Source of the DNA: an uncultured Gemmatimonadales bacterium
GTDB taxonomy: Bacteria; Gemmatimonadota; Gemmatimonadetes; Gemmatimonadales; GWC2-71-9
Length of the DNA: 64,000 nucleotides
Assembly: GCA_963798915.1 (NCBI GenBank)
Contig: CAWCVB010000003.1
Span: 1 to 64,000, forward strand
Direction: 5' to 3'
Shown here: positions 18,494 to 34,218 of the stretch, one piece after another
How positions within the stretch are numbered: the stretch's first letter is position 1
Layout: every line of letters begins with the position of its first letter
Program-made: the position numbers and the translations under genes
The notes under the pieces: generated by a model
Seen by the model: only the letters and a program-made list of their open reading frames with translations
Database searches by the model: none
What the model was told of the DNA's origin: nothing

Positions 18494-20500
18494 ATGACTC
18501 CTGCACCGCTGCTGGTCCTGCTGCTCGAAGACGTCGCGATGGACGCCGAGCTGCTGGAATTCGAGTTGAAGCATTCCGGCCTCGCCTGCGAAATCCGGCG
18601 GGTGGACTCGCGTGAGGCCTACGTCGAGGCCCTGCGTGACTTCCGGCCGGACGTCATTCTTTCCGACTTTTCCCTTCCCCAGTTTGACGGCATGCACGCG
18701 CTGGAGCTGGCGCGGGCCTGGGCCGTGACCGTGCCGTTCATCGTCGTCACCGGTTCCATCAATGAGGAGACGGCCGTCAAGTGCATGAAGGCCGGCGCCA
18801 CCGACTATGTGCTCAAGAGCAACCTGAGCCGCATCGGTCCCGCCGTACGGACGGCGCTCGAGCGGGAGCGCGAACGAGGCGAGCGGGAGCGTACCCAGAT
18901 CGCGCTGCGCCGATCCGAGGCGGACCTGCGCGCCATCTTTGACTCAACGGCGCAGGCCCTGGTGCTGCTCGGGCCGGAAAGCCGGGTGCGCCTGTTCAAT
19001 GCCGCGGCCGCCGAGGCCGAGGAGCACTGCGGTGGCTCGATCGGCATCGGTGTGCCCGCCGCCAGGCTGAGTCTCGTGAGCGAAGAGCACCTGCGGCAGG
19101 CGCTCGCCGGCGAGCGAGTCACCATCGAGGCAGCGCCCGGAGACGGAAGCCTGCGGTTTGACATCACCTATGCGCCGGTCCGGGATGATCGCGACGCGGT
19201 GATCGGGGTCTGCATCACGGCCGTGGACATTACCGAGCGCCGGCGCATGGATGAGCACCTGCGGCGCGCCGAACGGATGCAGGCCACGGGCAGGCTGGCC
19301 GGCGGCGTGGCTCACGAAGTGAACAACATGATGACGGCCATCCTCGGCTTCGGCGACTTTGTCCTCAAGAGCCTCGCGCCGGACGATGTCCGGACCGGAG
19401 ATGTGCAGGAAATCCTGAAGGCGGCCCACCGGGCCGCGGACGTCACGCGCCAGTTGCTGGCCTTCAGCCGGCAGCAGGTGCTGCACCCCCGCACGATCGA
19501 CCTGAACATCGTGCTCCAGGACGTGCTGCCCATGCTCCAGCGGTCAGTAGCCGAGGAACACGCGCTGGTGATGCAACTGGCGCCGGAGCCGTGCTGCTGC
19601 CACGCCGATCCCGGGCAGATCGAGCAGGTGATCCTGAACCTGGTGCTGAATGCCCGGGATGCAATGCCGTCAGGTGGACGCATCACCATCCAGACGGCGC
19701 AGCAGACGTTCGACGACATCTATGCCGCCCGTCACCCCGACCTCCGGCTACCGACCGGCGACTTCATCATGATTGCGGTGAGTGACACCGGCGCCGGGAT
19801 GGACCGGGCAACCATGCACCGCATCTTCGAGCCGTTCTTCACCACCAAGCCCGTCGGTCAGGGCACCGGGCTGGGGCTCTCCACCGCGTACGGCATCATC
19901 AAGCAGAGCAACGGTTTCATCTTTGCCTACAGCGAACCGGGCGACGGCACCGTCTTCAAGGCCTACCTGCCGCGCTCTCCCGAGAGCGCCGAGCGTCCTT
20001 CGGGACCGCGCCGGATGCCGCCGCGGGGCGGCTCGGAGACGATTCTGGTGGTGGAGGACGAGGCGGTGGTCCGGCAGCTCGCCGCGCGAGCGCTGCGCGA
20101 ATTCGGTTACTCGATCATCGAGGCAGAGAACGGGAAGGCGGCCCTGGAGATCTTCAAGCAGCGGTCACAGGAAATCGCGCTGGTCCTGACGGACGTGGCA
20201 ATGCCGGAAATGGGCGGGAGTGAACTGGCTGCCCGGCTGGAGGAATTCGCCCCGGATCTGCCGGTGCTGTTTACGTCCGGGTATACCGGAGAGGAAGTCG
20301 TGGAACGGGGACTGCTGCCGCACGGTGTTGCCTTCCAGTCCAAGCCCTTTGCCCCGGACGCCCTGGCGTCGCGGGTCCGCCGGTTGCTCGACCAGGTCCC
20401 GCGGAGCCGGAACGGCGGTCCGCCCGGCGCCGGCGACGCTATTGAGACGGCGGCGGCGAGGGACGGAGCAACGCCAGACGGACAGCATCAACCACGATAG
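18494..20500 (+). CDS. Hybrid sensor kinase REC-PAS-HisKA-HATPase-REC
   Basis: [57 protein letters not shown]. Confidence 0.92.
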
Positions 20501-21324: not shown

Positions 21325-22776
21325 TCAAGGCGACTCCGGGACCGCGGCACCGTGACAGGCGCTGCACATCTGCGGATTCCGCTTTCTCAACCGCTTGGCA
21401 TCGAACCCCGGCCCGTGCGGACTGAAGTGCCGCCCGCCCAGCGCCGAATGGCAGGTCAGGCAGTCCCGCTCGGCATGGCAGGAGACACAGCTCTCGAGGT
21501 TCTGCCGTGCGGCGGGACCGTGTCCGAGAAGAAAGTTCTGCTTCGCGTCATGAAATCCCCCGCGCAACTGTCCCCGAGCAACGAGCCCAGCCTGCTGGTG
21601 GCATTCGGTACAGAATTGCCGGGTGTTGTGGCACTCGGCGCACGACACGTCGCGCCCATATGCCGAGGCAGGATGGCGGGCGAGGAACCCGGTTGGGTGG
21701 TAGCCGGGCGCCGAGGCGGCGCTGGGCCGATGGCAGTCGAGACAGTCCGCTCGCGCATGACAGACGGCGCAGCTCCTGGGAACAGCGGCGGCAGGCAGCG
21801 CATGCCGATCGGAAAAATCGTCCCCGTGGGACGCGGGTCGGCGCCGCACAACCAGGGCACCGGCACCCCGCCCCGGCCCGCCTGCATGGATCGCGACCGT
21901 CGCCTCCGGCTTTCCGACGTGACAGGTGAGGCAGCTTTCGCGGGTATGACAGACGGCACAGCGCTGCGGTGCGCGCTGTTCCAGCCGCCCATGGCGCTGC
22001 ACAAAATCTCCAGCGCCGTGACTGGCGGGTGCCTCGAGCTTCACTTCGATCGCGAGCGAGCGGGCATCGGGCGCGAGTGCCTGGATTGGCGGAACTTCCG
22101 GGGCATTCACGTGGCACCTGATGCAGAAGTCGCGGGCGTGGCAGGTCGCGCAGCTCGGCGAGACCCCGATTGGCGGCCGACCAGCCACCGGGGTCGGCTG
22201 GGCGAGCTTTCCATGGTTCTGGATGAATGACGTATCCTGGTGGGACGGGGGTTCGGGAAACGCTGCAATGCGTCCTCGCGAGAGTGTCGTTGCCTGGGCC
22301 AGCGTCAGGTGGCAGGTAGCGCAGGCGGTGTCGGGCGCTGTGAGGTGCTCAGCCTGAATACCATGGCAGTTCAGACAGCGTTGCCGCTCGGTACGCTGAA
22401 CCCTCATCCAGGGTGCATCCGGGCCAAGGTGACATGACGCGCACATGAGCGAATCGAGAGGGAAGCGTGCGCCGGCTCTGGCGGCATGCACCAGATGCTT
22501 GAAGCGAAGATTGGATGGCCGCGATGCGTCGGGCGGGCTCCAATCGACCTTCTTCTCGATGGTGCCGTCGTGGCAATTCGCGCAGATGGCCGGCGAGGGC
22601 CAGATCGACCGGGTGGAATCCTGTGCACCGGCGTGGCACCCCTGGCACACGGGAAAGACCTCGCGGTGCTGCCAGTGATCGAAGTGATCCTTCGCAGCTC
22701 GCGCGGCGAGTTGCCCTCGCGACCCGATCACGGCCACGGCACCCGCCACGACGAGGAGGTAGTGTACTGGCCTCAT
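21325..22776 (-). CDS. Periplasmic hexadecaheme cytochrome c
   Basis: 16 CxxCH motifs counted; hydrophobic signal peptide; ATGA overlap with the upstream gene. Confidence 0.9.
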   Translation of the reverse strand: MRPVHYLLVVAGAVAVIGSRGQLAARAAKDHFDHWQHREVFPVCQGCHAGAQDSTRSIWPSPAICANCHDGTIEKKVDWSPPDASRPSNLRFKHLVHAARAGARFPLDSLMCASCHLGPDAPWMRVQRTERQRCLNCHGIQAEHLTAPDTACATCHLTLAQATTLSRGRIAAFPEPPSHQDTSFIQNHGKLAQPTPVAGRPPIGVSPSCATCHARDFCIRCHVNAPEVPPIQALAPDARSLAIEVKLEAPASHGAGDFVQRHGRLEQRAPQRCAVCHTRESCLTCHVGKPEATVAIHAGGPGRGAGALVVRRRPASHGDDFSDRHALPAAAVPRSCAVCHARADCLDCHRPSAASAPGYHPTGFLARHPASAYGRDVSCAECHNTRQFCTECHQQAGLVARGQLRGGFHDAKQNFLLGHGPAARQNLESCVSCHAERDCLTCHSALGGRHFSPHGPGFDAKRLRKRNPQMCSACHGAAVPESP

Positions 22777-24278
22777 CGGCCCGCGCGCCTCCGGGCGCCC
22801 CGGATTGCTGGTGGGAGACGAAGACGGTCGGCGTCCGTGCCAAATATCCACGAGATCCGGCCCTGCAGCCGGAACTGATTCCAGTCGAAGGCCCCTGCGT
22901 CGGCCCGACGACGGGCCTCGAAGTACTGCGCCGCCGACAGGCTCATCTGCAATCGATCGGACGCGCCGAAGCTGGCATCGAGGCCAATCGCGTCCACCTG
23001 CGCTTCATCGAAGCGGAGCTCGAGCGGCCGGGCCAGCGTGGAGCCGAAGGCTGAGAGCGAGAAGCGCGAAACTGGACGCCAGGTCACCTGGGCATCCCAG
23101 GTGCGCGACGACGCCCCCGCTCCGAACTCGGCGCGGTAGCCAGCGTCCAGCGTGAGGGTCGGGCTCGCCGATACAGTCGCAGAAATTGAGGATCGCCATC
23201 CCCGGTCTTCGACCGTCACGAGTCCGGTCTCGGCGAATGACTCGGTGTACCAGTAGCGCTCCCCGCTGGCGCGCAAGCGGACGCGCCGGGCCGGCGCGAA
23301 CGAGATGGACCCGTCGATGGCGGTATAGGGAACGGCGGCGAAGGCGCCCCAGATGGTCCACAGGTCGAAATGCGGCCGGTATCGCCTCACGCCCGCATCA
23401 GCAGTGAAGCGGCGATCCACGAACCGGAGAAACACTTCGGAACTGCCCCACCATCCCTGGGCCAGGTCGTACTCCGTCGCACCCGTGAGGCTCACATGCC
23501 CCATGGGACGAAGCCCGGCACTGAGGGCGGCGCGCTCGGAGCTGAAGAAGTGGGTTGATCGGTCCACCTCGCGCAGGTACTCGGCTCGGAGGTCGGCCCA
23601 GTGACTGCGCCAGTCCAGCGCTGCGCCTGCCGTGAGACTCCGTTGCGGCACCTGAAACTCGTCCAGCGGGTTGAGCGACGGGCTGTTGACGGGGATGTCG
23701 GTGCTTCGCGCCATGCCCCAGCCGCCATAGCCGGTCAGCTCGAGTCCGAGCCGCAGCACGCGCACCGTTACGGCGGCTCCATCAATTCCCGTCCAACCGA
23801 ACCGCCCGGTGATGTGCTGTCGTCCCAGGCGTGCCCTGAGGCCGGGCGTCTCGTACTCCGCGTACCCCTCGAGCAACTGAACCGCCGGCTGGGTACCAGG
23901 CCAGATGTTGTCCTTCCCGAGATCGACGCCCCACCGCGCATTCCCCCGAAGCCTGAGCCCGCTGACGCCCACGCCCCACGCTGTCAGGTCAACGCTGCTC
24001 ACCAGGGGATAGCTGGCCTGTCGCGGGCCGGGCCGAAAGTAGGTGCAGTAGGTACTGGAGCCCGGGCAGACGACCGCAAATCCGTCCGCCGACTCGGGAC
24101 CCCCGCTTGGGCCGACAACCGCGGCGCTGGAGAGGATGCTATCCTCTGCCACGCCGCGGAATGCCACCGCCTGAAAGCGGGTGTCCACGCGCAGCTGGTA
24201 ATCCTGGGCAGAGAGGACGCTCGAGACCAGGCAGGTCAGGGCAATGCCCAGGGCAGCCGGCTGGCGCGGGCGACTTAC
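22773..24278 (-). CDS. Outer-membrane beta-barrel (porin of a putative porin-cytochrome complex)
   Basis: Signal peptide ending VLSA-QD, alternating aromatic beta-strands, RLGRQ motif, late RISWIF strand; lies between multiheme genes; start codon atypical. Confidence 0.78.
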   Translation of the reverse strand, partial: VSRPRQPAALGIALTCLVSSVLSAQDYQLRVDTRFQAVAFRGVAEDSILSSAAVVGPSGGPESADGFAVVCPGSSTYCTYFRPGPRQASYPLVSSVDLTAWGVGVSGLRLRGNARWGVDLGKDNIWPGTQPAVQLLEGYAEYETPGLRARLGRQHITGRFGWTGIDGAAVTVRVLRLGLELTGYGGWGMARSTDIPVNSPSLNPLDEFQVPQRSLTAGAALDWRSHWADLRAEYLREVDRSTHFFSSERAALSAGLRPMGHVSLTGATEYDLAQGWWGSSEVFLRFVDRRFTADAGVRRYRPHFDLWTIWGAFAAVPYTAIDGSISFAPARRVRLRASGERYWYTESFAETGLVTVEDRGWRSSISATVSASPTLTLDAGYRAEFGAGASSRTWDAQVTWRPVSRFSLSAFGSTLARPLELRFDEAQVDAIGLDASFGASDRLQMSLSAAQYFEARRRADAGAFDWNQFRLQGRISWIFGTDADRLRLPPAIRGARRRAGR

Positions 24279-24985
24279 GATGCCGCCCTCCCTCGACTGA
24301 GCTGTTGCCGAAGTTCCGCTGGCGAGCGCTGGAAATGGCAGACACTGCACTCCTTTTCCGCATGATGGTCCTGCTCGGGCGAGTGGCAGGCCAGGCAGAA
24401 CGAACGGGTCGGAACCAGCCGCGCGATGGTGGCGGGAGTGTGGCACCGATCACAGGCCACGTGGGTCATCGCCGGGTGCTTCACTGCCGCCGTCTCAGGT
24501 CGATGGCATACGGCGCAATCCCGGGCCTGAGCGTGGTGCTGGTCGTGGCAGCCAATACAGGTCCGGGCCGAGTCCGCCGGAGCCATGGTGACGGGTGTGA
24601 CGTGGCAGCGAGTGCAGGCGAGACTGTCGTGCTTCGCGTGAGGAAACTGCACTGGTCGACGCTGCGGCTCGTGCCGGGGCACGGCCACGGTCACCTCCAC
24701 CGCCACTGCCGCCGCAAGCTGGTTGGCCTCGTGGCATGCTCTGCAATCCGCCTTGGCGGGACGCTGGTGATGGCAGATCTGGCAGCCACGAGGTGGCTCG
24801 AATGTCAGTGGCTGTGTCTCCGATCGAAGATCGTGACAGGTGAGACAGGCGAGGCGCCGGTGGCGTGCGTGCGGGAAAGAGTCGCTGACAGCGGCGTCGG
24901 ACGCCTGGTGGCGTGCCGCCAGAATACTGTGGCCGCCGTGGGGCGGCCACAGGTAGAGGACGGCAAGGAGGAGGCCGAGTTGCAC
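24275..24985 (-). CDS. Nonaheme cytochrome c (c3/c7-like repeats)
   Basis: 9 CxxCH motifs, two FPHA.H distal-His motifs, N-terminal signal, GGGGGAG RBS. Confidence 0.9.
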   Translation of the reverse strand: MQLGLLLAVLYLWPPHGGHSILAARHQASDAAVSDSFPHARHRRLACLTCHDLRSETQPLTFEPPRGCQICHHQRPAKADCRACHEANQLAAAVAVEVTVAVPRHEPQRRPVQFPHAKHDSLACTRCHVTPVTMAPADSARTCIGCHDQHHAQARDCAVCHRPETAAVKHPAMTHVACDRCHTPATIARLVPTRSFCLACHSPEQDHHAEKECSVCHFQRSPAELRQQLSRGRAAS

Positions 24986-25001: not shown

Positions 25002-26690
25002 TCAGCGTGTGGGCGGCTGGTAGAGTACGCCCGGCCGCGTGAGGGCCCGGTCCATCACGGCGCGGACACTCACGTTGGGGTTTGCGAGGCCGTACTCCGT
25101 CTTCACCGCGTCAATCGAGGCCGCCAGCATCGCCTCGTAGTAGAATGGGTTGTGCACCCCGTGCGAGCCCTCAAGGTGTCGCTGGCTCGAACCAGTTGCG
25201 TTCAGGTACGGAATCTCGCTGAACAAAATCGTGTTGTAGAACGCCTTCTCCGCCGTGCTCGAGATCGAGCTGTTGGTGAACTCCCCGGGATTGTTTGCCA
25301 GGACCTGCGCGAGATATCCCTGATCCGTCGGTGCGGGATCGAGGTATCCGTTGTTGTTGACGTCGGACCACAGCTGAGCCGCCAGCGTGCCGATGGCCGT
25401 GCGCTCCGAATTCAGGAGCTGCGCTGCCGTGCTGGCGTCGGCGTGGCAGCCACTTGCCGCGCAGGCGCTCCAGTTCCGGGCGCTGGCCGTGAAGGCGCAC
25501 GCGTCATCGTATGGATCGACCGGAATGCCGCTGGGTTGCACGCACGGAATCGGCTGGAACAAGTGGCCGACCGAGGTGAACGTCCCGCCAGGCAGGCTGG
25601 CATCGTTGACGGTATACCGGACGACATGGCAGCCGGCGCAGGTCTCCGGATTTCGGCTGGCGTTCCCGTGGGAGCTCGGCCCCTGGAAGGTGAGCCCGGG
25701 AGGTTCCCACCCTGCATCGCCGAACACGACCGGCCCCTGCGCGCCATGCGCACCCCGCTGCCCCTGCGGCAGGTTCGGGTCCGCGACGTTCAGCGACGTG
25801 AAGGGGGTAAATGCCAGGCTCGGTTTCGCACTGTTGTTGTGACAGTGGGCGCAGAGATTCTGGTTGATGTCGCTGGTGGTCACCGGCAGGCGCAGCTGGC
25901 CCTTGATGGGCTTGCCGTCCGGCCCCTGAACGGAGCCATGCGGATCGTGACAGACGGCGCAGGTCTGCGGGAACTCGTAGGTCAGTCCCGCATCGAGCTC
26001 CACGAAGTTGGTCCGCTGCACGTTCAAGTCGACGAGGACCTGCTTCCCGCTATGACACTGGGGTCCGCAGCTGGCGCCGCCGTGCGAGTTCACCACGCTG
26101 TCGCCGTGGCCCGACTGTCTCCACTGCTCCACGTACGGCGTGTGCCCCTCGTTGTTGTGACATGCACCACAGGTGGCCCCGGCCGGAGCATGCGTCACGC
26201 TGGTGTCGGTCGGATCGAAGACGTTGGCACGCGCCAGCGGCCACTTGGTCGGGTCGTCAGGCGTGACGACATGGTCGATCCCCGGGCCGTGGCAGCTTTC
26301 GCACTGCACATCCCGGTACACGCTATCGCTGGTCAGGTCCCAGCCAGCCTCCTTGCCCAGGAGACCGACCATGTTTCCGCGCGCCGTCACGTCATGGCAG
26401 CTGAAGCACTCCGGCGCCGCGTTGGGCACCTGCGCAATGAGATTCTCGAATGCCGAAGCATGGGCAGTCTTTGCCCAGTCGGCCTGGTGCCCGACATGGC
26501 AGTTCCCGCAGGTGGTCTGCTTGGTACTCACCGTGAAGAAGCCGAGAAAGCCGTTCGCGGGATCGGCCGGGGGATTGAAAGGCTCCCGGTCCCTGAACAC
26601 GGTGTTGGTGCATGCCGCGCCCACGAGCGCCGTAACGACCGTGAGATACAGCACCATGCGAGGTGAGACGACTCGGGACCGGGGCGACAT
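25002..26690 (-). CDS. Multiheme cytochrome c lipoprotein (7 CxxCH + CX3CH + CX4CH)
   Basis: Lipobox-like VGAA-C; c554-like W..TAHA..F and VQCESCHGPG; C-terminal GSHGVHNPFY. Confidence 0.88.
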   Translation of the reverse strand: MSPRSRVVSPRMVLYLTVVTALVGAACTNTVFRDREPFNPPADPANGFLGFFTVSTKQTTCGNCHVGHQADWAKTAHASAFENLIAQVPNAAPECFSCHDVTARGNMVGLLGKEAGWDLTSDSVYRDVQCESCHGPGIDHVVTPDDPTKWPLARANVFDPTDTSVTHAPAGATCGACHNNEGHTPYVEQWRQSGHGDSVVNSHGGASCGPQCHSGKQVLVDLNVQRTNFVELDAGLTYEFPQTCAVCHDPHGSVQGPDGKPIKGQLRLPVTTSDINQNLCAHCHNNSAKPSLAFTPFTSLNVADPNLPQGQRGAHGAQGPVVFGDAGWEPPGLTFQGPSSHGNASRNPETCAGCHVVRYTVNDASLPGGTFTSVGHLFQPIPCVQPSGIPVDPYDDACAFTASARNWSACAASGCHADASTAAQLLNSERTAIGTLAAQLWSDVNNNGYLDPAPTDQGYLAQVLANNPGEFTNSSISSTAEKAFYNTILFSEIPYLNATGSSQRHLEGSHGVHNPFYYEAMLAASIDAVKTEYGLANPNVSVRAVMDRALTRPGVLYQPPTR

Positions 26691-27044: not shown

Positions 27045-29390
27045 ATGAGGCGCGTCGACCGCAGAACCTTCCTCAAGAAGTCAGCCGTCGTCTCGGCGGC
27101 CACTGCCGCCTCCGCGCTGGTGCCGGCTATCGCCGTGCCTGCCGGCACCAATCTCCTGCAGGCCACCCGGACAGCGCTCGCCTGGAAGAAGGCACCCTGT
27201 CGCCTCTGCGGAGTGGGCTGCGGGCTGCTGGTCGGCATCGAGCAGGGTCGGGCGGTGGCCGTGAAGGGCGACCGCGATTCGCCCGTTGGCAAGGGGTCGG
27301 CGTGCGTGAAGGGGTACTACTCGGTGCAGGCGCTCTATGGCCGCGATCGCGTCACGCAAGCCCTGATTCGGCGTGGGGGCGCGCTGGTGCCTGTGCCGCT
27401 CGCGGAGGCCCTGGATCTGGTGGCCCGCCAGCTCGGCGAGACGGTCCGGCAGCATGGCAAGGACAGCGTGGCGCTTTATGGATCGGCCCAGTGGACCATT
27501 CCCGATGCCTACGTGGCGTCAAAGCTCTTCAAGGGGGCCTTGGGCACCAACAACATCGAGACCAGCACCCGGCTGTACGCGGCCAGCGCCATGGCCGGTC
27601 TCGAGAGCAGTTTCGGCCTCGATGGCGCGATCGGCTGCTACGAGGATATCGACCACGCCGATGTGTTCGTGCTGTGGGACGACAACCTGGCCGAAACCGA
27701 TCCGGTCCTGTTCTCCCGGATGCTCGACCGGCGCCAGCACAACCCGGCAGCTCGCATTATCCATGTCTCCACCCGGACTACGCGAACCAGTTATGCGGCT
27801 GACCACACGTTGCTGCACGTGCCGCACGCCGAACTGGCGATCGCCAACGCCCTCTGCCATGAGCTCGTGGCGCAGAAGCTGGTGGATCGCGAGTTCGTGA
27901 GCCGGTACGTCGCGTTCAAGCGGGGCAGGACCGACATCGGTATCGGCCTCGCGGGCGACGTGCCCATTCCGGATACTGCCACCGACGCCACCTGGGACAG
28001 CTACGTCGCGTTCCTCGACCGGTACGAGCCGCGCCGTCTCCAGGTGCTCACGGGCGTCCCGGCCGAGGACATCCGATGGCTCGCATCCGTCTATGGCGAC
28101 CGGGCGCGCAAGGTCATGTCGGTCTGGGGAACCGATGTGAACCAGGACGTGCGCGGCACCTGGATCAACAACCTCCTGTACAATATCCATCTGCTGGTGG
28201 GGAAGGTTGGGACTCCTGGCAACAGCCCGTTCTGCACCACGGGCCAGCCCAGTGGCGGATGCGCGGTCCACGACGCGGGGACCTTGACCCACACGCTGCC
28301 GCGCGGTGTCGTGCACAACGAACAGGATCGTCGCCGCGCCGCCGAAATCTGGGGAGTACCGGCCGGCCAGATCGACCCCCGGCCGACCCACAGCGCGCTT
28401 CCGATGTTCCGCGCCCTCGAACAGGGCGATATCCGCTTTCTGTGGATCCAAGCCACGGATCCGATGCTCAGCCTTCCCAACCTGACTCGCTACCGGCAGG
28501 CCGCAGCTCGGGAGGGACGCTTCATCGTGGTGTCGGAGGTTTTCCCTACGCCGACCACGGATATCGCGGACGTGGTGCTGCCCGCCGCGATGTGGATCGA
28601 GCGGGAGGGCGTTTTTGCCAACGTCGAGCGCCGCCTGCAGCACTTCGATCGCATGATCGCCCCGCCAGGAGATGCGACCAGCGACGCATGGCTGATGATC
28701 GAGGTCGCGCGCCGGCTGGGCTTCGCCAAACTCTTTCCCTGGGACCAGCCGCATCACGTCGACCAGATCTGGACGGAGTACAGCCGCTTCCACCAGGACC
28801 CGCAGAGCGCGCTCCCCCCTCTCGCCGAGTTGCGCGCGCAGCCAGGCGTGATGTGGCCCTATGTGGATGGGCGCGCGACACGATGGCGCTACAACACGGC
28901 GCACGACCCGGCCGCCGACCGGACCCGGGGTGACTTCGACTTCTACGGTCATCCGGATCGCCGCGCCTGGATCTGGCTGCGGCCCCACGAGGCGCCGGCC
29001 GAAGTGCCTGATCGGGAGTATCCCTTCTGGCTGAGCAGCGGCGCTGTGCTCGAGCACTGGGGGAGGGGCTCCATGACGCAGCGCATCCCCATCCTCCATC
29101 AAGCCCTCCCGCATGCGTATGTGGAGATGCATCGCGACGATGCGAAGCAGCTCGGCATCCGCAACCACGACCGCGTGCGGGTGGTGAGCCGGCGGGGCGC
29201 TCTCGAAGTCGAAGCCCGGCTCGACTATCGCTCGCAGCCATCACGCGGTCAGCTGTTCGTTCCGTGGTTTGACGAGGCCGTGCCGGTCAACCGGCTCGCG
29301 CTCGATGCCGCCTGTCCGCTGTCGGGACAGCCGGATGCCAGCAAGTGTGCCGTGAGAGTGGAACGCGTGCGCCCAGGGAGCGGCGGGTGA
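27045..29390 (+). CDS. Tat-exported molybdopterin oxidoreductase, NapA-like with altered active site
   Basis: DRRTFLKK Tat motif; KAPCRLCGVGC...CVKG Fe-S motif; GSAQWTI, GCYEDID, TGQPS, YPFWLSSGAVLEHW, FVPWFDE all track NapA. Confidence 0.88.
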   Translation: MRRVDRRTFLKKSAVVSAATAASALVPAIAVPAGTNLLQATRTALAWKKAPCRLCGVGCGLLVGIEQGRAVAVKGDRDSPVGKGSACVKGYYSVQALYGRDRVTQALIRRGGALVPVPLAEALDLVARQLGETVRQHGKDSVALYGSAQWTIPDAYVASKLFKGALGTNNIETSTRLYAASAMAGLESSFGLDGAIGCYEDIDHADVFVLWDDNLAETDPVLFSRMLDRRQHNPAARIIHVSTRTTRTSYAADHTLLHVPHAELAIANALCHELVAQKLVDREFVSRYVAFKRGRTDIGIGLAGDVPIPDTATDATWDSYVAFLDRYEPRRLQVLTGVPAEDIRWLASVYGDRARKVMSVWGTDVNQDVRGTWINNLLYNIHLLVGKVGTPGNSPFCTTGQPSGGCAVHDAGTLTHTLPRGVVHNEQDRRRAAEIWGVPAGQIDPRPTHSALPMFRALEQGDIRFLWIQATDPMLSLPNLTRYRQAAAREGRFIVVSEVFPTPTTDIADVVLPAAMWIEREGVFANVERRLQHFDRMIAPPGDATSDAWLMIEVARRLGFAKLFPWDQPHHVDQIWTEYSRFHQDPQSALPPLAELRAQPGVMWPYVDGRATRWRYNTAHDPAADRTRGDFDFYGHPDRRAWIWLRPHEAPAEVPDREYPFWLSSGAVLEHWGRGSMTQRIPILHQALPHAYVEMHRDDAKQLGIRNHDRVRVVSRRGALEVEARLDYRSQPSRGQLFVPWFDEAVPVNRLALDAACPLSGQPDASKCAVRVERVRPGSGG

Positions 29391-30208
29391 GCGCCGGCGG
29401 TTCGGGATTCGTCGGCCGGGTTCTGGCGGTATTCCTGCTGGTGTCCGCCATTACGGCAATCGCCTCGGCAATCGTCGCGATCCGGCGGCAGCCTTCCCCT
29501 CCGACTCCTCGGCCAGAACCGGTTGCGGTCGCCATGCTCACGCCACCGACGGACTCCATTGCCGCCGAGGCGCAGGTGTTCGAACTCCGCGCCGGGATGA
29601 TGGCCTTCGCATTCTCCATCCGCCGGGAGCGGCAGGCTCACCCCCGCACGCTCACGACGTATCACTACCTCCGCGCCTATCCAGGAGCGCCGCCACGCAT
29701 CCCCCATGAACTGACCCCCGACGAGTTCCGTACCAGCGCCTGCAAGGCGTGCCACGAACGCGGTGGCTATTCACGGCGGTTCGTCGCGTACGTGCCGGTC
29801 ACACCGCATCCCGACCGGGGGCCCTGTCTCCAGTGTCACGTCGGTGTTGATCAGCTCATGGGAGTCCCGCTGATCAGTCCGGATCCGAATCGGCGCTGTC
29901 ATCAATGCCATGGCGGGGGCGGCAAGCCCCAGGCCACTTCCGATGCCTTGCTCGACTGGCGCACGAATGCGTGGCCGCTTCTGGCTCCGGTCACGCACGA
30001 TCAGAACCCGCCCCCGATTCCGCACGACCCGCAATTCAGAGAGAACTGTCTGGCGTGCCACGCGGGACCCGCCGCCGTGGCGGAGATCCGGACGACTCAC
30101 CCGGACCGCGCGGACTGCCGCGGGTGCCATGTCGCACGCGATCCGGAGGCGAAGCCGTTTGTGCGCGCCGTGAGCGCCGGCCAGGCGGATGCCGGAGATG
30201 CCCGATGA
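29387..30208 (+). CDS. NapB-like pentaheme cytochrome c (two tandem NapB-like units), N-terminal membrane anchor
   Basis: AYPGAPPRIPH..CKACH..TPHP..CLQCH; CHQCH; PPPIPH..CLACH..THP..CRGCH; GTGA overlap. Confidence 0.82.
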   Translation: MSAGGSGFVGRVLAVFLLVSAITAIASAIVAIRRQPSPPTPRPEPVAVAMLTPPTDSIAAEAQVFELRAGMMAFAFSIRRERQAHPRTLTTYHYLRAYPGAPPRIPHELTPDEFRTSACKACHERGGYSRRFVAYVPVTPHPDRGPCLQCHVGVDQLMGVPLISPDPNRRCHQCHGGGGKPQATSDALLDWRTNAWPLLAPVTHDQNPPPIPHDPQFRENCLACHAGPAAVAEIRTTHPDRADCRGCHVARDPEAKPFVRAVSAGQADAGDAR

Positions 30209-30930
30209 GTCGCCTCGGGATTCCGGCCGTCGCGCTCCTGATGGGAGTCGCCATGGCGCCGTCAGCCTGCAGCCACCGGCGCGACGCGGTCGCGACGCGC
30301 CGTTCCGAGGCCGGGCCGGATACGCTCCGGTCGCGGGCGGAGTCTACCTGGAAGGCGTTCACGGCGACACGGGAGCCAGGCAGCCTGGCAATGGTCCCAG
30401 CCGCCCGTGTCCTGGGCTGGGCCGGATCGGGAAACCGAACATTCGAGGTCGCGACACGCACTTCCGAGGACGCCGGGCACGCGCGCAGGTTCGGGACCCA
30501 GACGCTGCAGACGTCGCTGCGCACGCGGCCGCTGGGCCAGTACCCGTGCACCTCTTGCCACCTCGGCCGAAGGGTCACGATGACCGACCGGCGAGCCGGC
30601 GATGTTCACCATGACGTACAGCCGGCGCATCCCAGGCAGACCGGTGCGCGCTGCTCGACGTGTCATGCCTCGGAGGACGTGCAGCTGCTGGCGTTGGAGA
30701 ACGGCGAGCGCGTGACCTTGGACCAGAGCTACCGGCTCTGCGCCGACTGTCATTACGCCCAGGTCAACGCATGGGCCCATGGCGCCCACGGCAAACGTCT
30801 GGATGGCTGGCAGGGGCGCCGTGTGGTCATGGCGTGTCCCGACTGCCACGACCCGCACCAGCCGGGCCTCGTGAAGCGCATTCCATTTCGCGCCCCCACG
30901 GTTGAACGAATCCGGGAGGCTGGCCAATGA
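30205..30930 (+). CDS. Tetraheme cytochrome c, probable lipoprotein
   Basis: APSA-C after a hydrophobic stretch; CTSCH, CSTCH, CADCH, CPDCHDPH; W..GAHGKR. Confidence 0.82.
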   Translation: MSRLGIPAVALLMGVAMAPSACSHRRDAVATRRSEAGPDTLRSRAESTWKAFTATREPGSLAMVPAARVLGWAGSGNRTFEVATRTSEDAGHARRFGTQTLQTSLRTRPLGQYPCTSCHLGRRVTMTDRRAGDVHHDVQPAHPRQTGARCSTCHASEDVQLLALENGERVTLDQSYRLCADCHYAQVNAWAHGAHGKRLDGWQGRRVVMACPDCHDPHQPGLVKRIPFRAPTVERIREAGQ

Positions 30931-31911: not shown

Positions 31912-33219
31912 GTGCATCTGAGGCCGTTCCTGCTCACCGCGCTGCAATCGGCCACCTCGGGCAGCCGGCGTTACCACCTGTGGATGGCCGCGCTGACGGG
32001 CGTCATGCTTCTCGGCGGCCATGCCTACTACGAGCAGGTACGGTATGGCCTCGGAGTCACCGGCATGAGCGACCATGTGAGCTGGGGTCTGTACATCTCC
32101 AACTTCACCTTCCTGGTCGGCATGGCGGCGGCGGCCATGATGCTGGTGCTGCCGGCCTATATCCTGGAAAACGTCGACTTCAGCCGCGCGGTGCTCCTGG
32201 CCGAGGGGGTGGCCGTGGCCGCGCTGGTGATGTCACTCTCGTTCGTCGTGGTCGACCTGGGCAATCCGTTCGCCTCCTGGCACCTGATTCCCCGCATCGG
32301 CTACCTGAACTGGCCCCGGTCGCTCCTCGCATGGGACGTGATCGTCCTGAATGGCTACCTGGCCCTGAACCTGGCGATCCCGTTCTACATCCTGTACAGC
32401 CACTTCGCCGGGCGCTCGCCGCCCAAGAGCAAGTATCTCCCCTGGATGTACGTCTCAGTGATGTGGGCGGTGAGCATCCATCTGGTCACGGCGTTCCTGC
32501 TCGCGGGCCTGCCGGCCCGCCCGTTCTGGAGCAGCGCGCTGCTGGGCCCCCGGTTTCTCGCCTCGGCGTTCACCGCGGGTCCGGCATTCATGATCCTGCT
32601 GCTCTACTTCATCCGCAAGACGACCACGTATCCCATCGCAGAGGGCGCCTTCTCGAAGCTGGCGCTGATCACCACTGTCGCGGCGCAGATCAACCTCGTG
32701 ATGCTGCTCTCGGAGCTCTTCTATGAGTTCTACTGGCCCACCCATCATGGCCTCAGCGCCTACTATCTCTTCTTCGGTCTCGATGGGCACCACGCGCTTG
32801 TCCCGTGGATCCGGACGGCGGTCGCCCTCAATATCCTGGCGACATTGGCGCTCATGATTCACCCGGTGCGGCGCAACTCACGATTGCTGATGCTCGCCTG
32901 TAGCACGCTGTTCGTCGCCATCTGGATCGAAAAGGGCCTGGGACTCGTGATTCCCGGTTTCATCCCCTCCCCGCTGGGTGAGATAGTCGAATACATCCCA
33001 ACGTGGGTGGAGCTGCGCGTGACAGCCGGCATCTGGGCCCTGGGTCTCTTCGTGCTCACGGTCCTGGTCCGGGTGGCGCTTCCGATCGAGCTGGGTGAGG
33101 TGCGAAGCCCATTCCAGCAGGTTCGCCACGGAGCGTCGCAGACGCGTTCGGTCGCTGCCATCCGGCCGCGCACCGCTCGTGCGAGGCAGGAGGAGGTCCC
33201 GCCGGTTCGGACCCGGTGA
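31912..33219 (+). CDS. NrfD/PsrC/DsrP-family membrane quinol-interacting subunit
   Basis: GLGVTGMSDHVSWGLYISNFTFLVG, VDLG.P, SIHLVTAFL, PRFLASAF, WIEKG.GLVIPGF.PSPLGE; ~10 hydrophobic helices. Confidence 0.9.
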   Translation: MHLRPFLLTALQSATSGSRRYHLWMAALTGVMLLGGHAYYEQVRYGLGVTGMSDHVSWGLYISNFTFLVGMAAAAMMLVLPAYILENVDFSRAVLLAEGVAVAALVMSLSFVVVDLGNPFASWHLIPRIGYLNWPRSLLAWDVIVLNGYLALNLAIPFYILYSHFAGRSPPKSKYLPWMYVSVMWAVSIHLVTAFLLAGLPARPFWSSALLGPRFLASAFTAGPAFMILLLYFIRKTTTYPIAEGAFSKLALITTVAAQINLVMLLSELFYEFYWPTHHGLSAYYLFFGLDGHHALVPWIRTAVALNILATLALMIHPVRRNSRLLMLACSTLFVAIWIEKGLGLVIPGFIPSPLGEIVEYIPTWVELRVTAGIWALGLFVLTVLVRVALPIELGEVRSPFQQVRHGASQTRSVAAIRPRTARARQEEVPPVRTR

Positions 33220-33264: not shown

Positions 33265-34218
33265 ATGGACATGACGCAACTCAGGCCAAACGATACTCGA
33301 TTGTCGCTCGCCGCTCTTGCCGCAGGGTTCATTGGGGGCGCTGGCGTGGCTGGCGCACTGTTTCTCGCCGGCGTGGTCCCCGCACTGGCCGGCCTGGTGG
33401 GAGTAGGTGTCTGGGTGTTGCTCGCCACCGCCATCAAGTACACCGACCAGTGGGAGAAGGCCGTGGTCCTTCGCCTCGGCCGCTACCGGGGCCTGCGAGG
33501 GCCTGGCTACTTCACCATCGTCCCGATTGTCGACCGGCTGGCCTACACCATCGATCAACGGATCCGGACCACCGCCTTCGGGGCCGAGTCGTGCCTGACC
33601 CGTGACACCGTGCCGGTCAACGTGGACGCCATCGCATTCTGGATCGTGCGTGATGCCGAGCGGGCCGCGCTGGAGGTGCAGGACTACGACGAAGCGGTCA
33701 TCCTCTCGGCGCAGACCGCCTTGCGGGATGCCATCGGCAAGCATGACCTCGCCGAGATGATCCAGGCACGGGTGGAGCTGGGTCAGGGACTCAAGGTCGC
33801 GCTGGAGCAGAAGATGGCGACGTGGGGAATTCACGTGCAGTCGGTGGAGATCCGTGACATCATCATTCCCGAGGCGCTCGAGGATGCCATGTCACGCCAG
33901 GCGCAAGCGGAGCGGGAGCGGCAGGCGCGTATCATCCTCGGCACAGCCGAAACCGAAATCGCCCACAAGTTCGTGGAAGCCGCGGACGCCTATCGCGATC
34001 ACCCCGCGGCCATGACCCTGCGGGCCATGAACATGCTCTACGAGAGCATCGCAAAGCGAGGGTCGCTCATGGTCGTGCCATCCGGGCTGGCTGATTCGCT
34101 GAACGTCCCGTCGATGATGGGCCTGATGGGTGCCACCGGACTCCTCCCGCCAGACGGCTCGGCCGGCAAATCGGCAGTGCCTGGGCGGGAGGCGACAAGC
34201 GAAACGAAGGAGCGGTAG
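33265..34218 (+). CDS. SPFH/band-7 (stomatin-like) membrane protein
   Basis: QWEKAVVLRLG, LTRDTVPVNVDA, AQTALRDAIG, AMSRQAQAERERQAR. Confidence 0.92.
   Translation: MDMTQLRPNDTRLSLAALAAGFIGGAGVAGALFLAGVVPALAGLVGVGVWVLLATAIKYTDQWEKAVVLRLGRYRGLRGPGYFTIVPIVDRLAYTIDQRIRTTAFGAESCLTRDTVPVNVDAIAFWIVRDAERAALEVQDYDEAVILSAQTALRDAIGKHDLAEMIQARVELGQGLKVALEQKMATWGIHVQSVEIRDIIIPEALEDAMSRQAQAERERQARIILGTAETEIAHKFVEAADAYRDHPAAMTLRAMNMLYESIAKRGSLMVVPSGLADSLNVPSMMGLMGATGLLPPDGSAGKSAVPGREATSETKER

Follow-up and report, generated by a model that had tools for sequence, protein, structure and literature searches.

In the window analysed here, a 64,000-nt stretch of DNA (positions 1 to 64,000 of contig CAWCVB010000003.1, assembly GCA_963798915.1) from an uncultured Gemmatimonadales bacterium, we found a gene whose product, P0001, resembles the periplasmic nitrate reductase NapA over its whole length and carries Tyr at the position of the Cys that ligates molybdenum (Mo) in that enzyme. 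Judged from its sequence, P0001 is very probably not a nitrate reductase. On balance we lean, with a conviction only slightly better than even, towards P0001 being a NapA-derived, non-catalytic iron-sulfur (Fe-S)/scaffold subunit of a quinone-cytochrome electron-transfer complex. Loss or disabling of Mo-site function in the clade that shares the missing Cys would fit better than new Mo chemistry, and the cofactor itself, Mo-bis(pyranopterin guanine dinucleotide) (Mo-bisPGD), is probably absent, as the lost ligand, the lost pterin contacts and the lost chaperone gene napD suggest. The gene in question is the following:

27045..29390, plus strand: NapA-derived MopB protein P0001, 781 aa, with a twin-arginine translocation (Tat) signal, a four-Cys Fe-S motif, and Tyr178 replacing the Mo-ligating Cys

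Phmmer aligned P0001 end to end with solved NapA structures (3ML1_A, E 2e-191; 2NYA_A, E 1.6e-183), bearing out the likeness to NapA throughout that had been proposed in an initial annotation of this gene, and its Pfam domains (PF04879, PF00384, PF01568) are the MopB enzyme set. The N-terminus reads MRRVDRRTFLKK and includes a twin-arginine signal (RRTFLK), of which R6 and R7 were invariant in 35/35 aligned sequences. All four Fe-S cysteines (C52, C55, C59, C87) are in place, so that both the Tat and the Fe-S motifs are as intact as the initial annotation had them, and the Lys that in NapA bridges the Fe-S cluster and the proximal pterin (PMC13223375) corresponds to Lys89. In the same phmmer alignments, the segment NNIETSTRLYAASA of P0001 lay against NNIDPNARHCMASA of the NapA structures, WGTDVNQD against WTMGFNQH, and GQPSGGCAVHDAG against GQPSACGTAREVG. 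The codon of Tyr178 is TAC at 27576-27578, and the Tyr in the ligand segment and the remodelling of the two other segments were thus recovered as originally described.

Despite this likeness, P0001 scored below both curated NCBIfam NapA cut-offs (756.7 bits vs 904 for NF010055; 733.9 vs 930.55 for TIGR01706). It also fell short of the arsenite-oxidase model TIGR02693 (103.9 bits, cut-off 359), and it matched the NCBIfam QrcB model only at E 2.2e-20, over residues 48-278. P0001 shows the four-domain MopB fold; its AlphaFold2 (AF2) model had a mean predicted local distance difference test score (pLDDT) of 86.5 and a predicted template modelling score of 0.88, and in Foldseek it superposed on 3ML1_A with a template modelling (TM) score of 0.91 and on the arsenite oxidase AioA with one of 0.74. 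The GQPS...HD loop of the model had a pLDDT <50.

To examine the ligand position in relatives of P0001, we ran a word-seeded search, which returned 2480 proteins at E <=1e-50 among 8000 scored candidates, and used the 120 best. These best 120 homologues were 72-100% identical to P0001, many of them being named 'nitrate reductase NapA' or coming from Gemmatimonadales metagenome-assembled genomes, and their ligand column was predominantly Tyr (115), with Phe in 3, His in 2 and no Cys at all. The initial annotation had argued for several coordinated changes over a single TGC-to-TAC error, and this count agrees with it; likewise, the closest homologues do not have the Cys of which P0001 might have been a decaying copy (0/120). 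Since Tyr recurs in close homologues and in independent assemblies, it is not a sequencing error or a chance event. In a library of representatives at 50% identity, P0001's own cluster was represented at 67% identity, and the next full-length representatives (46%, 44% and 39% identical to P0001) all had Cys. A scan of one genome per species gave 80 loci. The ligand column was Cys in 54 of them (Cys-type loci); 21 others had Tyr, 3 had His and 1 had Ser, and one locus lacked the segment. Within the order of the window's organism, 14 of a sample of 151 genomes had a match at E <=1e-100, none of them with two separate genes. In a comparison with sequencing runs, no RNA run was listed as a match, and only two DNA runs matched, with 6-7% of the words.

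For residue counts we used 134 sequences lacking the ligand Cys (Cys-less) and 47 sister Cys-type NapAs, both sets being database proteins and loci pooled, with duplicates between them possible. Of the 134, 127 had Tyr at the ligand position, 5 had His and 2 had Phe, against Cys in 47/47 sisters. Beyond this set, it was Ser in the early-branching locus L075, Arg or Ala in the divergent members G123 and G112, and Gln in some members that branch earlier or are more remote. An obligatory role of Tyr as ligand was therefore rejected, given His and Phe within the clade and Ser, Arg, Ala and Gln farther out. The same applies to the 'shifted Cys' at position 406, which was mostly Ser (82/134) and Cys in only 24/134, with some Asn (10), Gly (9) and Ala (7).

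Outside the clade, we noted other MopB representatives without the ligand Cys, namely P0233 (Tyr), P0235 (Glu), P0264 (Ser) and P0265 (Ser), and the ligand has therefore been lost or changed in further lineages too; the pterin-patch Gly was kept in P0233, P0235 and P0264 and was Ala in P0265. We also noted a NapA homologue 48% identical to P0001 in two genomes of the same family (G087:C56:49771-52140 and G125:C51:8654-11020), the G087 copy having Cys and all canonical motifs. Both copies were flagged with one in-frame TGA in the genome search, and tblastn of the G087 copy gave no stop; the flagged TGA could be selenocysteine or a read-through artefact.

The changes in P0001 extend well beyond the ligand. 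A 2026 review (PMC13223375) lists Arg354, Asp155, Glu156 and Asp355 (D. desulfuricans numbering) among the residues of the NapA channel, describes Tyr58 as adjoining haem II of NapB, and gives two pterin hydrogen-bonding patches of eight conserved residues, Gly213, Asn215, Glu218, Arg720, Val721, His724, Trp725 and His726 (E. coli UniProt numbering). We mapped these residues through the 2NYA and 3ML1 alignments and counted them in the 134 Cys-less and 47 sister sequences, with the following outcome at the positions that changed:

Met after the ligand Cys: Met in 47/47 sisters; Ala in 112, Gly in 17 and Ser in 5 of 134 Cys-less sequences
Arg354: Arg in 47/47 sisters; His in 118, Gln in 8 and Asn in 5 of 134 Cys-less sequences
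Glu156: Glu in 47/47 sisters; Gly in 134/134 Cys-less sequences
Gly213: Gly in 47/47 sisters; Asp in 125/134 Cys-less sequences
Arg720: Arg in 47/47 sisters; Ala in 99, Pro in 16, Thr in 7 and Val in 6 of 134 Cys-less sequences
His726: His in 47/47 sisters; Gly in 133/134 Cys-less sequences
His724: His in 47/47 sisters; His in 109 and Gln in 25 of 134 Cys-less sequences

The window protein itself keeps five of the eight pterin contacts (N215, E218, V721, H724 and W725) and has lost three (G213 to Asp, R720 to Ala, H726 to Gly). In the channel it retains Asp155, and at the Asp355 position it has Asp where the sister clade has Glu. The residues lost are otherwise widely kept: in a wider comparison with 124 Cys-bearing cluster representatives of Nap, Nas and Fdh (formate dehydrogenase) type, the Gly213 column held Gly in 123 and a gap in 1 (123/123 non-gap rows), and among non-gap rows Arg720 was Arg in 106/112 and His726 was His in 94/112. 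The Asp of the P-x-T-D-x-A motif, found in 109/123 Cys-bearing representatives, is Ala, Glu or Gly in the Cys-less clade. Common to every Cys-less member examined were the Fe-S motif, Tyr91, the change of Gly213 to Asp, and the loss of the Cys, of Arg720 and of His726 (in the 134-sequence set, Asp in 125 and Tyr91 in 130). All four Fe-S cysteines were present in 134/134 of these sequences, and Tyr91, which occupies the NapA Tyr58 position, in 130/134. The pocket motifs also deviate in L075, L026, L007, L043 and L020.

Along with the ligand, the Cys-less loci have lost napD. At Cys-type loci, a NapD open reading frame (ORF) lies directly upstream of napA, and a Pfam NapD match was found for 28/47 of the ORFs just upstream in Cys-type loci, for 0/18 of those in Cys-less loci and for 0/1 in L075. 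Using tblastn with eight Gemmatimonadota NapD queries and counting hits at E <=1e-3, we found napD at 49/54 Cys-type loci vs 0/28 Cys-less loci, with 22 Cys-less loci having at least 700 bp of upstream flank. The genome from which the window comes (84.8% complete) had no Pfam NapD match and a best tblastn hit of E 0.66, and the Cys-less operon contains no replacement chaperone gene. As a separate observation, at one Cys-type locus labelled Deltaproteobacteria (L055:5356-6171) the place of NapD directly upstream of napA is taken by an ORF for an NrfA-type cytochrome c552.

The genes for cofactor supply were less telling. The window's genome encodes MoaA, and FdhD, MobA, MobB and MoeA cluster on the same contig (G000:C3 ~89.7-94.1 kb, L001), ~60 kb downstream of the P0001 gene. 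The same genome also encodes a bona fide formate dehydrogenase alpha subunit of 976 aa (G000:C5, L002:4674-7604, minus strand; 735.2 bits vs 666.25), and the Mo-bisPGD genes argue neither way because this true formate dehydrogenase explains them. Eight other genomes with a gene of the Cys-less type (six judged by identity only) all had other strong MopB genes, and in these and the window's genome the other MopB genes were of formate-dehydrogenase type, some with an in-frame TGA. A MobA-like gene was found in 7/8 of the other genomes, the best match in G119 being only E 1.3e-4. With other MopB genes everywhere, the profile of synthesis genes is therefore uninformative on whether the Cys-less protein needs molybdopterin guanine dinucleotide (MGD). 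As for other enzymes of nitrogen oxide reduction, we found no NrfA and no NirS in the window's genome, and a NirK-like copper protein (G000:C11:58178-58999) at 178.8 bits vs a cut-off of 296.3.

Phylogenetic analysis placed the origin of P0001 within its own phylum. In a FastTree phylogeny of 86 rows, the Cys-less sequences, mostly labelled Gemmatimonadales or Gemmatimonadaceae, formed a single clade of 22 rows (support 100), which had a long stem (0.25) and was nested in a 52-row branch (support 99) that otherwise consisted of Cys-type NapA of Gemmatimonadota-labelled genomes; outside that branch lay Cys-type NapAs of Bacteroidota, Acidobacteriota, Planctomycetota, Latescibacterota and others. 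In an IQ-TREE phylogeny of 38 rows that included the two divergent members, all 15 Cys-less rows again fell in one clade (Shimodaira-Hasegawa-like approximate likelihood ratio test (SH-aLRT) 99), with L075, which has Ser at the ligand position, as its first branch. FastTree instead paired L075 with the Cys-type L052, and an approximately unbiased test did not reject this pairing (p 0.42), so that one or two losses of the Cys are both possible. P0001 thus descends from a Cys-type periplasmic NapA of Gemmatimonadota.

Constraint on the Cys-less protein is relaxed. Of 361 columns conserved at 95% or more in the 47 sisters, which span several phyla, 257 were retained in the Cys-less clade, 22 had switched to a different residue that is itself conserved, and 82 were relaxed. 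As an internal clock we used the DsrO-like and DsrP-like genes (together DsrOP) of the same loci and took the ratio of NapA to DsrOP p-distances; the median ratio, over pairs that are not independent of each other, was 1.44 within the Cys-less set (210 pairs), 0.97 for Cys-type Gemmatimonadota (253 pairs) and 0.90 for all Cys-type loci (741 pairs). The Cys-less protein therefore evolves about 1.5 times faster relative to its partner subunits. The divergent members G123 and G112, 53-54% identical to P0001, have had the GQPS...R loop deleted and have lost Trp725. Even so, their Fe-S cysteines are in place and their operon is the same, its DsrO and DsrP products being 81-85% and 72-74% identical, respectively, to the window's.

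The operon downstream of P0001 runs on the same strand and consists of the following genes:

29345..30208, plus strand: membrane-anchored pentahaem cytochrome c with five CxxCH motifs; the predicted start overlaps the end of the NapA-like gene
30205..30930, plus strand: tetrahaem cytochrome c, its N-terminus, MSRLGIPAVALLMGVAMAPSAC, resembling a lipoprotein signal; start set at the ATG overlapping the pentahaem stop codon
30927..31904, plus strand: periplasmic four-cluster ferredoxin, DsrO/QrcC/NrfC-like, with a Tat motif (NCBIfam DsrO 193.2 bits vs cut-off 200; Pfam Fer4 families)
31912..33219, plus strand: NrfD-family integral membrane, quinone-interacting subunit, DsrP-like (NCBIfam DsrP 391.9 bits vs cut-off 350; Pfam NrfD)
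33265..34218, plus strand: SPFH/Band 7 (stomatin/HflK-like) membrane protein, downstream of the DsrP-like gene in Cys-less loci

All four partners (pentahaem, tetrahaem, DsrO-like and DsrP-like) were found downstream in 19/26 Cys-less vs 41/54 Cys-type loci, and the loci without a complete set were mostly on contigs that end early. Four of the haem motifs of the pentahaem protein were invariant across 31 homologues. We considered this protein as a possible NapB and rejected it, its similarity being weak (best match 1OGY_B, E 0.11), and the tetrahaem protein had no significant match in a search for known relatives. A predicted complex of P0001 residues 43-781 with pentahaem residues 95-287 scored 0.64, with one unrelated control at 0.65. 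The operon is without NapC, NapG and NapH, and there was no Rieske gene among its ORFs. In four Cys-less loci (L004, L019, L021 and L022) a second DsrO-like, DsrP-like and SPFH module follows the first (~17-20 kb in each locus); the window holds a single such module.

Divergently upstream of the NapA-like gene, four minus-strand genes make up a porin-cytochrome-like cluster:

25002..26690, minus strand: multihaem cytochrome, probably a lipoprotein, and first gene of the cluster; seven CxxCH, two motifs with longer spacing, and a match to MtrC/MtrF domain II/IV
24275..24985, minus strand: 236-aa cytochrome P0271, with nine CxxCH, c3/c7-like, between the MtrC-domain cytochrome and barrel genes
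22773..24278, minus strand: outer-membrane beta-barrel of ~500 aa; start near 24278 inferred from homologues
21325..22851, minus strand: cytochrome c with 16 CxxCH

The order of a lipoprotein multihaem cytochrome (MtrC domain II/IV), a small multihaem cytochrome and a large outer-membrane barrel is like that of MtrCAB-type porin-cytochrome conduits; the cluster differs from MtrCAB in having no sequence-family membership, a small cytochrome that is c3/c7-like with nine haems, and an extra 16-haem cytochrome. The barrel was modelled by AF2 at a pLDDT of 80.0 as an all-beta protein with 26 strand elements by DSSP, and its Foldseek matches were all outer-membrane barrels at TM <0.5, with MtrB at rank 50 (TM 0.40). 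It had no Pfam or NCBIfam match, and its protein-atlas matches were unnamed Gemmatimonadota clusters only, with generic outer-membrane barrel families at 0.92. The N-terminal extension of a mechanically called 557-aa barrel ORF was rejected as coding, because it overlaps P0271 in another frame and the homologues carry stops there. P0271 was conserved in 15 Cys-less loci (46-65% identity) and more weakly (30-34%) in L075 and eight Cys-type loci. The barrel gene, with which the nine-haem gene goes along, lay within the fetched flanks of 13/26 Cys-less loci and of 5/54 Cys-type loci, all five Gemmatimonadota-labelled, and the association with the cluster is thus tightest in the Cys-less clade. 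Beside the cytochrome cluster, a gene at 18494-20500 on the plus strand encodes a hybrid histidine kinase/response regulator with a PAS domain, a possible regulator. Separately, we noted Cys-intact Gemmatimonadota Nap operons beside the same cytochrome/barrel cluster (L029, L030, L035, L036 and L040), and such loci hint at a link of periplasmic nitrate reduction to an outer-membrane electron conduit in Gemmatimonadota.

Among known systems, the closest is the direct ancestor group, the Cys-type NapA of napD-napA-pentahaem-tetrahaem-DsrO-like-DsrP-like operons in Gemmatimonadota, Bacteroidota, Acidobacteriota, Planctomycetota and others, which is 53-66% identical to P0001 over the best tblastn segment and behind which stand the structures 3ML1, 2NYA, 1OGY and 2NAP. 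P0001 shares with this group its fold, the Tat signal, the Fe-S motif and the four downstream partners, and differs in lacking the Mo-ligating Cys, the channel Arg and Glu, and napD, in changes at three of the eight pterin contacts, and in its faster evolution and sub-cut-off scores. In what we propose for it, P0001 would resemble ActB of alternative complex III (ACIII), QrcB of Qrc, Nqo3/NuoG of complex I, and FhcB, in which the fold of a catalytic subunit has been kept as a non-catalytic part of a complex for electron transfer or scaffolding. QrcB and NuoG are not known to carry a cofactor, or act as scaffold. ActB, FhcB and Nqo3 are likewise MopB members without a catalytic cofactor, ActB lacking Mo/W-bisPGD and FhcB being a scaffold (PMC10100899). 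The partner genes of P0001 also recall ACIII and Qrc, since they encode multihaem cytochromes, a four-cluster ferredoxin and an NrfD-family subunit, an association seen here at the level of the operon. QrcB is not known to have the N-terminal [4Fe-4S] motif, which P0001 has fully kept. Its descent is also independent of ActB and QrcB and much more recent, from NapA within one phylum and not from the ArrA/PsrA or Fdh lineages.

How, then, is P0001 best explained? We prefer loss of the Mo site over a new ligand because the ligand position and the 'shifted Cys' both vary, pterin contacts are lost, napD is gone and the loop is deleted in deeper members, and Phe or Ala at the ligand position is unable to ligate Mo. 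On the same grounds, the suggestion in the initial annotation of another ligand (Tyr or the shifted Cys) and an unknown substrate was not supported. Its further suggestion of a ligand-free centre as in AioA fares less well than loss of the Mo site across the clade as a whole, although it may apply to the window's subclade. The scaffold role is in turn favoured because of the change of Gly213 to Asp, the loss of two more near-universal pterin contacts, the unfixed ligand, the loss of napD, the faster evolution and the deletion of the loop with the operon kept. Under this explanation, Tat export, the N-terminal [4Fe-4S] cluster and the haem-facing residues would have been retained after loss of the Mo site, and P0001 would be the iron-sulfur/scaffold subunit beside the pentahaem and tetrahaem cytochromes, the DsrO-like ferredoxin and the DsrP-like quinone-interacting subunit. 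Through such a complex, electrons would travel between the quinone pool and multihaem cytochromes, probably including those of the neighbouring barrel and cytochrome cluster, which would amount to extracellular electron transfer in one direction or the other; the role as scaffold, the course of the electrons and the outer-membrane link are all inferred.

Several of our observations weigh against this explanation. Of the sister-conserved columns, 257/361 are still kept, as are, in the 134 Cys-less sequences, the bridging Lys (132), Asn215 (131), Glu218 (134), Val721 (134) and Trp725 (131), and Gln401 of GQPS is invariant in one of our alignments. In the window's Gemmatimonadales subclade, the replacement residues are themselves conserved (Tyr178 95%, Asp212 93%, Asp219 93%, His258 95%, Asp368 87%, His409 88%, Asp410 98%, Gly673 99%), a pattern that could mark a new functional pocket rather than decay. 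In a scaffold, the retained Fe-S cluster would be a dead end with no obvious electron-transfer role. The cluster occurs beside Cys-type loci too, and its association is therefore older than the loss of the Cys, and it is adjacency that links the NapA-like complex to it.

Some of these observations feed an alternative that we regard as rather unlikely, though to be taken seriously, in which P0001 is an active Mo- or W-bisPGD enzyme on a new substrate, with either no protein ligand, as in AioA and the iodate reductase IdrA, or a Tyr/His ligand, and exchanges electrons with the quinone pool by way of the Fe-S cluster, the haems and the DsrOP-like module. The conservation of pocket replacements in the window's subclade (87-98% for Tyr178, Asp212, His258, Asp368, His409 and Asp410) speaks for it, as do the cluster-to-pterin Lys, N215, E218, W725 and Gln401 that are kept, a full MGD biosynthesis set in the genome, and an intact Fe-S cluster, which makes most sense with something redox-active behind it. 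AioA and IdrA have a Rieske partner. These two proteins are the model for such an enzyme; they carry a [3Fe-4S] cluster, unlike P0001 with its four Fe-S cysteines and its operon lacking a Rieske gene. They are also periplasmic, Tat-exported MopB proteins whose metal works without an amino-acid ligand (PMC10100899). What counts against an active enzyme is that the Gly of 123/123 Cys-bearing relatives is now Asp and that R720 and H726 are lost; that the ligand column is unfixed (Tyr, His, Phe, Ser, Arg, Ala, Gln); that napD has gone and no gene for a substitute chaperone is found in the operon; and that the protein evolves faster than its partners, the divergent members dropping an active-site loop while keeping the operon.

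There is a slim chance that the acidic, His-rich pocket binds a different metal or cofactor. It would then be a new site that the Fe-S cluster connects to the haems and that might take a cationic substrate, Fe(II) or Mn(II) for instance. The conserved switches G212D, H219D, F258H, H368D, R409H, E410D, D498E and C178Y would agree with this, together with a pocket charge that has changed from cationic to anionic and the multihaem cytochromes and outer-membrane barrel next door; however, a spatial cluster of the switched residues is conjectural, the GQPS...HD loop was modelled at pLDDT <50, and the switched residues are not conserved in the early-branching L075, L026, L007, G123 and G112. A somewhat broader version, which we would still call distinctly unlikely, holds that the pocket of the window's subclade has not simply decayed and has been rebuilt as a redox-active site, be it a Mo/W-bisPGD centre without a ligand or a novel metal site, with a cationic or neutral substrate, for example Fe(II) or Mn(II). 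It would draw on Tyr178, Asp212, Asp219, His258, Asp368, His409, Asp410 and Glu498, each of which is 87-99% conserved in the subclade. The Fe-S cluster, nine haems and the DsrOP-like module would connect the site with the quinone pool, and it would also have a link to the outer-membrane cytochrome conduit. If true, the rebuilt site would give an abundant soil phylum a new respiratory enzyme.

By far the least credible explanation, to our minds, is that P0001 is an ordinary nitrate reductase with another residue at the ligand position, a decaying pseudogene or an assembly error. Many database copies bear the name of the nitrate reductase, and the overall fold and operon are those of Nap, but P0001 has neither the Cys nor the channel Arg and Glu, napD is missing and the scores lie under both NapA cut-offs, in keeping with the initial annotation, which likewise held a nitrate reductase to be improbable. 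Independent assemblies share the Tyr codon, and no frameshifts or stops were seen in clade members. With the ORF intact in the 134 aligned clade sequences and so many of the invariant columns kept, P0001 is under selection.

In the literature searched, which did not cover subscription journals, we found no paper on a Cys-less NapA clade, and none on a quinone-linked extracellular route of this kind in Gemmatimonadota. In the available sections of a Gemmatimonadota genome survey, napAB is mentioned only as common in soda-lake sediments (PMC10581226), and the sequences of a curated MopB phylogeny were each screened for the ligand to be expected (PMC10100899), so that Cys-less sequences were presumably not kept, which may explain why the clade is undescribed. 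Since many public copies bear the name 'nitrate reductase NapA', homology-based napA counts in Gemmatimonadota-rich soils would include genes that are almost certainly unable to reduce nitrate. Together, the operon and the adjacent barrel/cytochrome cluster suggest a quinone-linked extracellular electron-transfer route in Gemmatimonadota. In the clade itself, a catalytic molybdoenzyme subunit seems to have become non-catalytic recently and within one phylum, with intermediates still alive in the form of Ser members, loop-intact members and loop-deleted members. The same process is assumed for ActB, QrcB and NuoG, where it is too old to trace; if the scaffold explanation is true, the present case would be an independent, recent and intermediate-rich instance of it.

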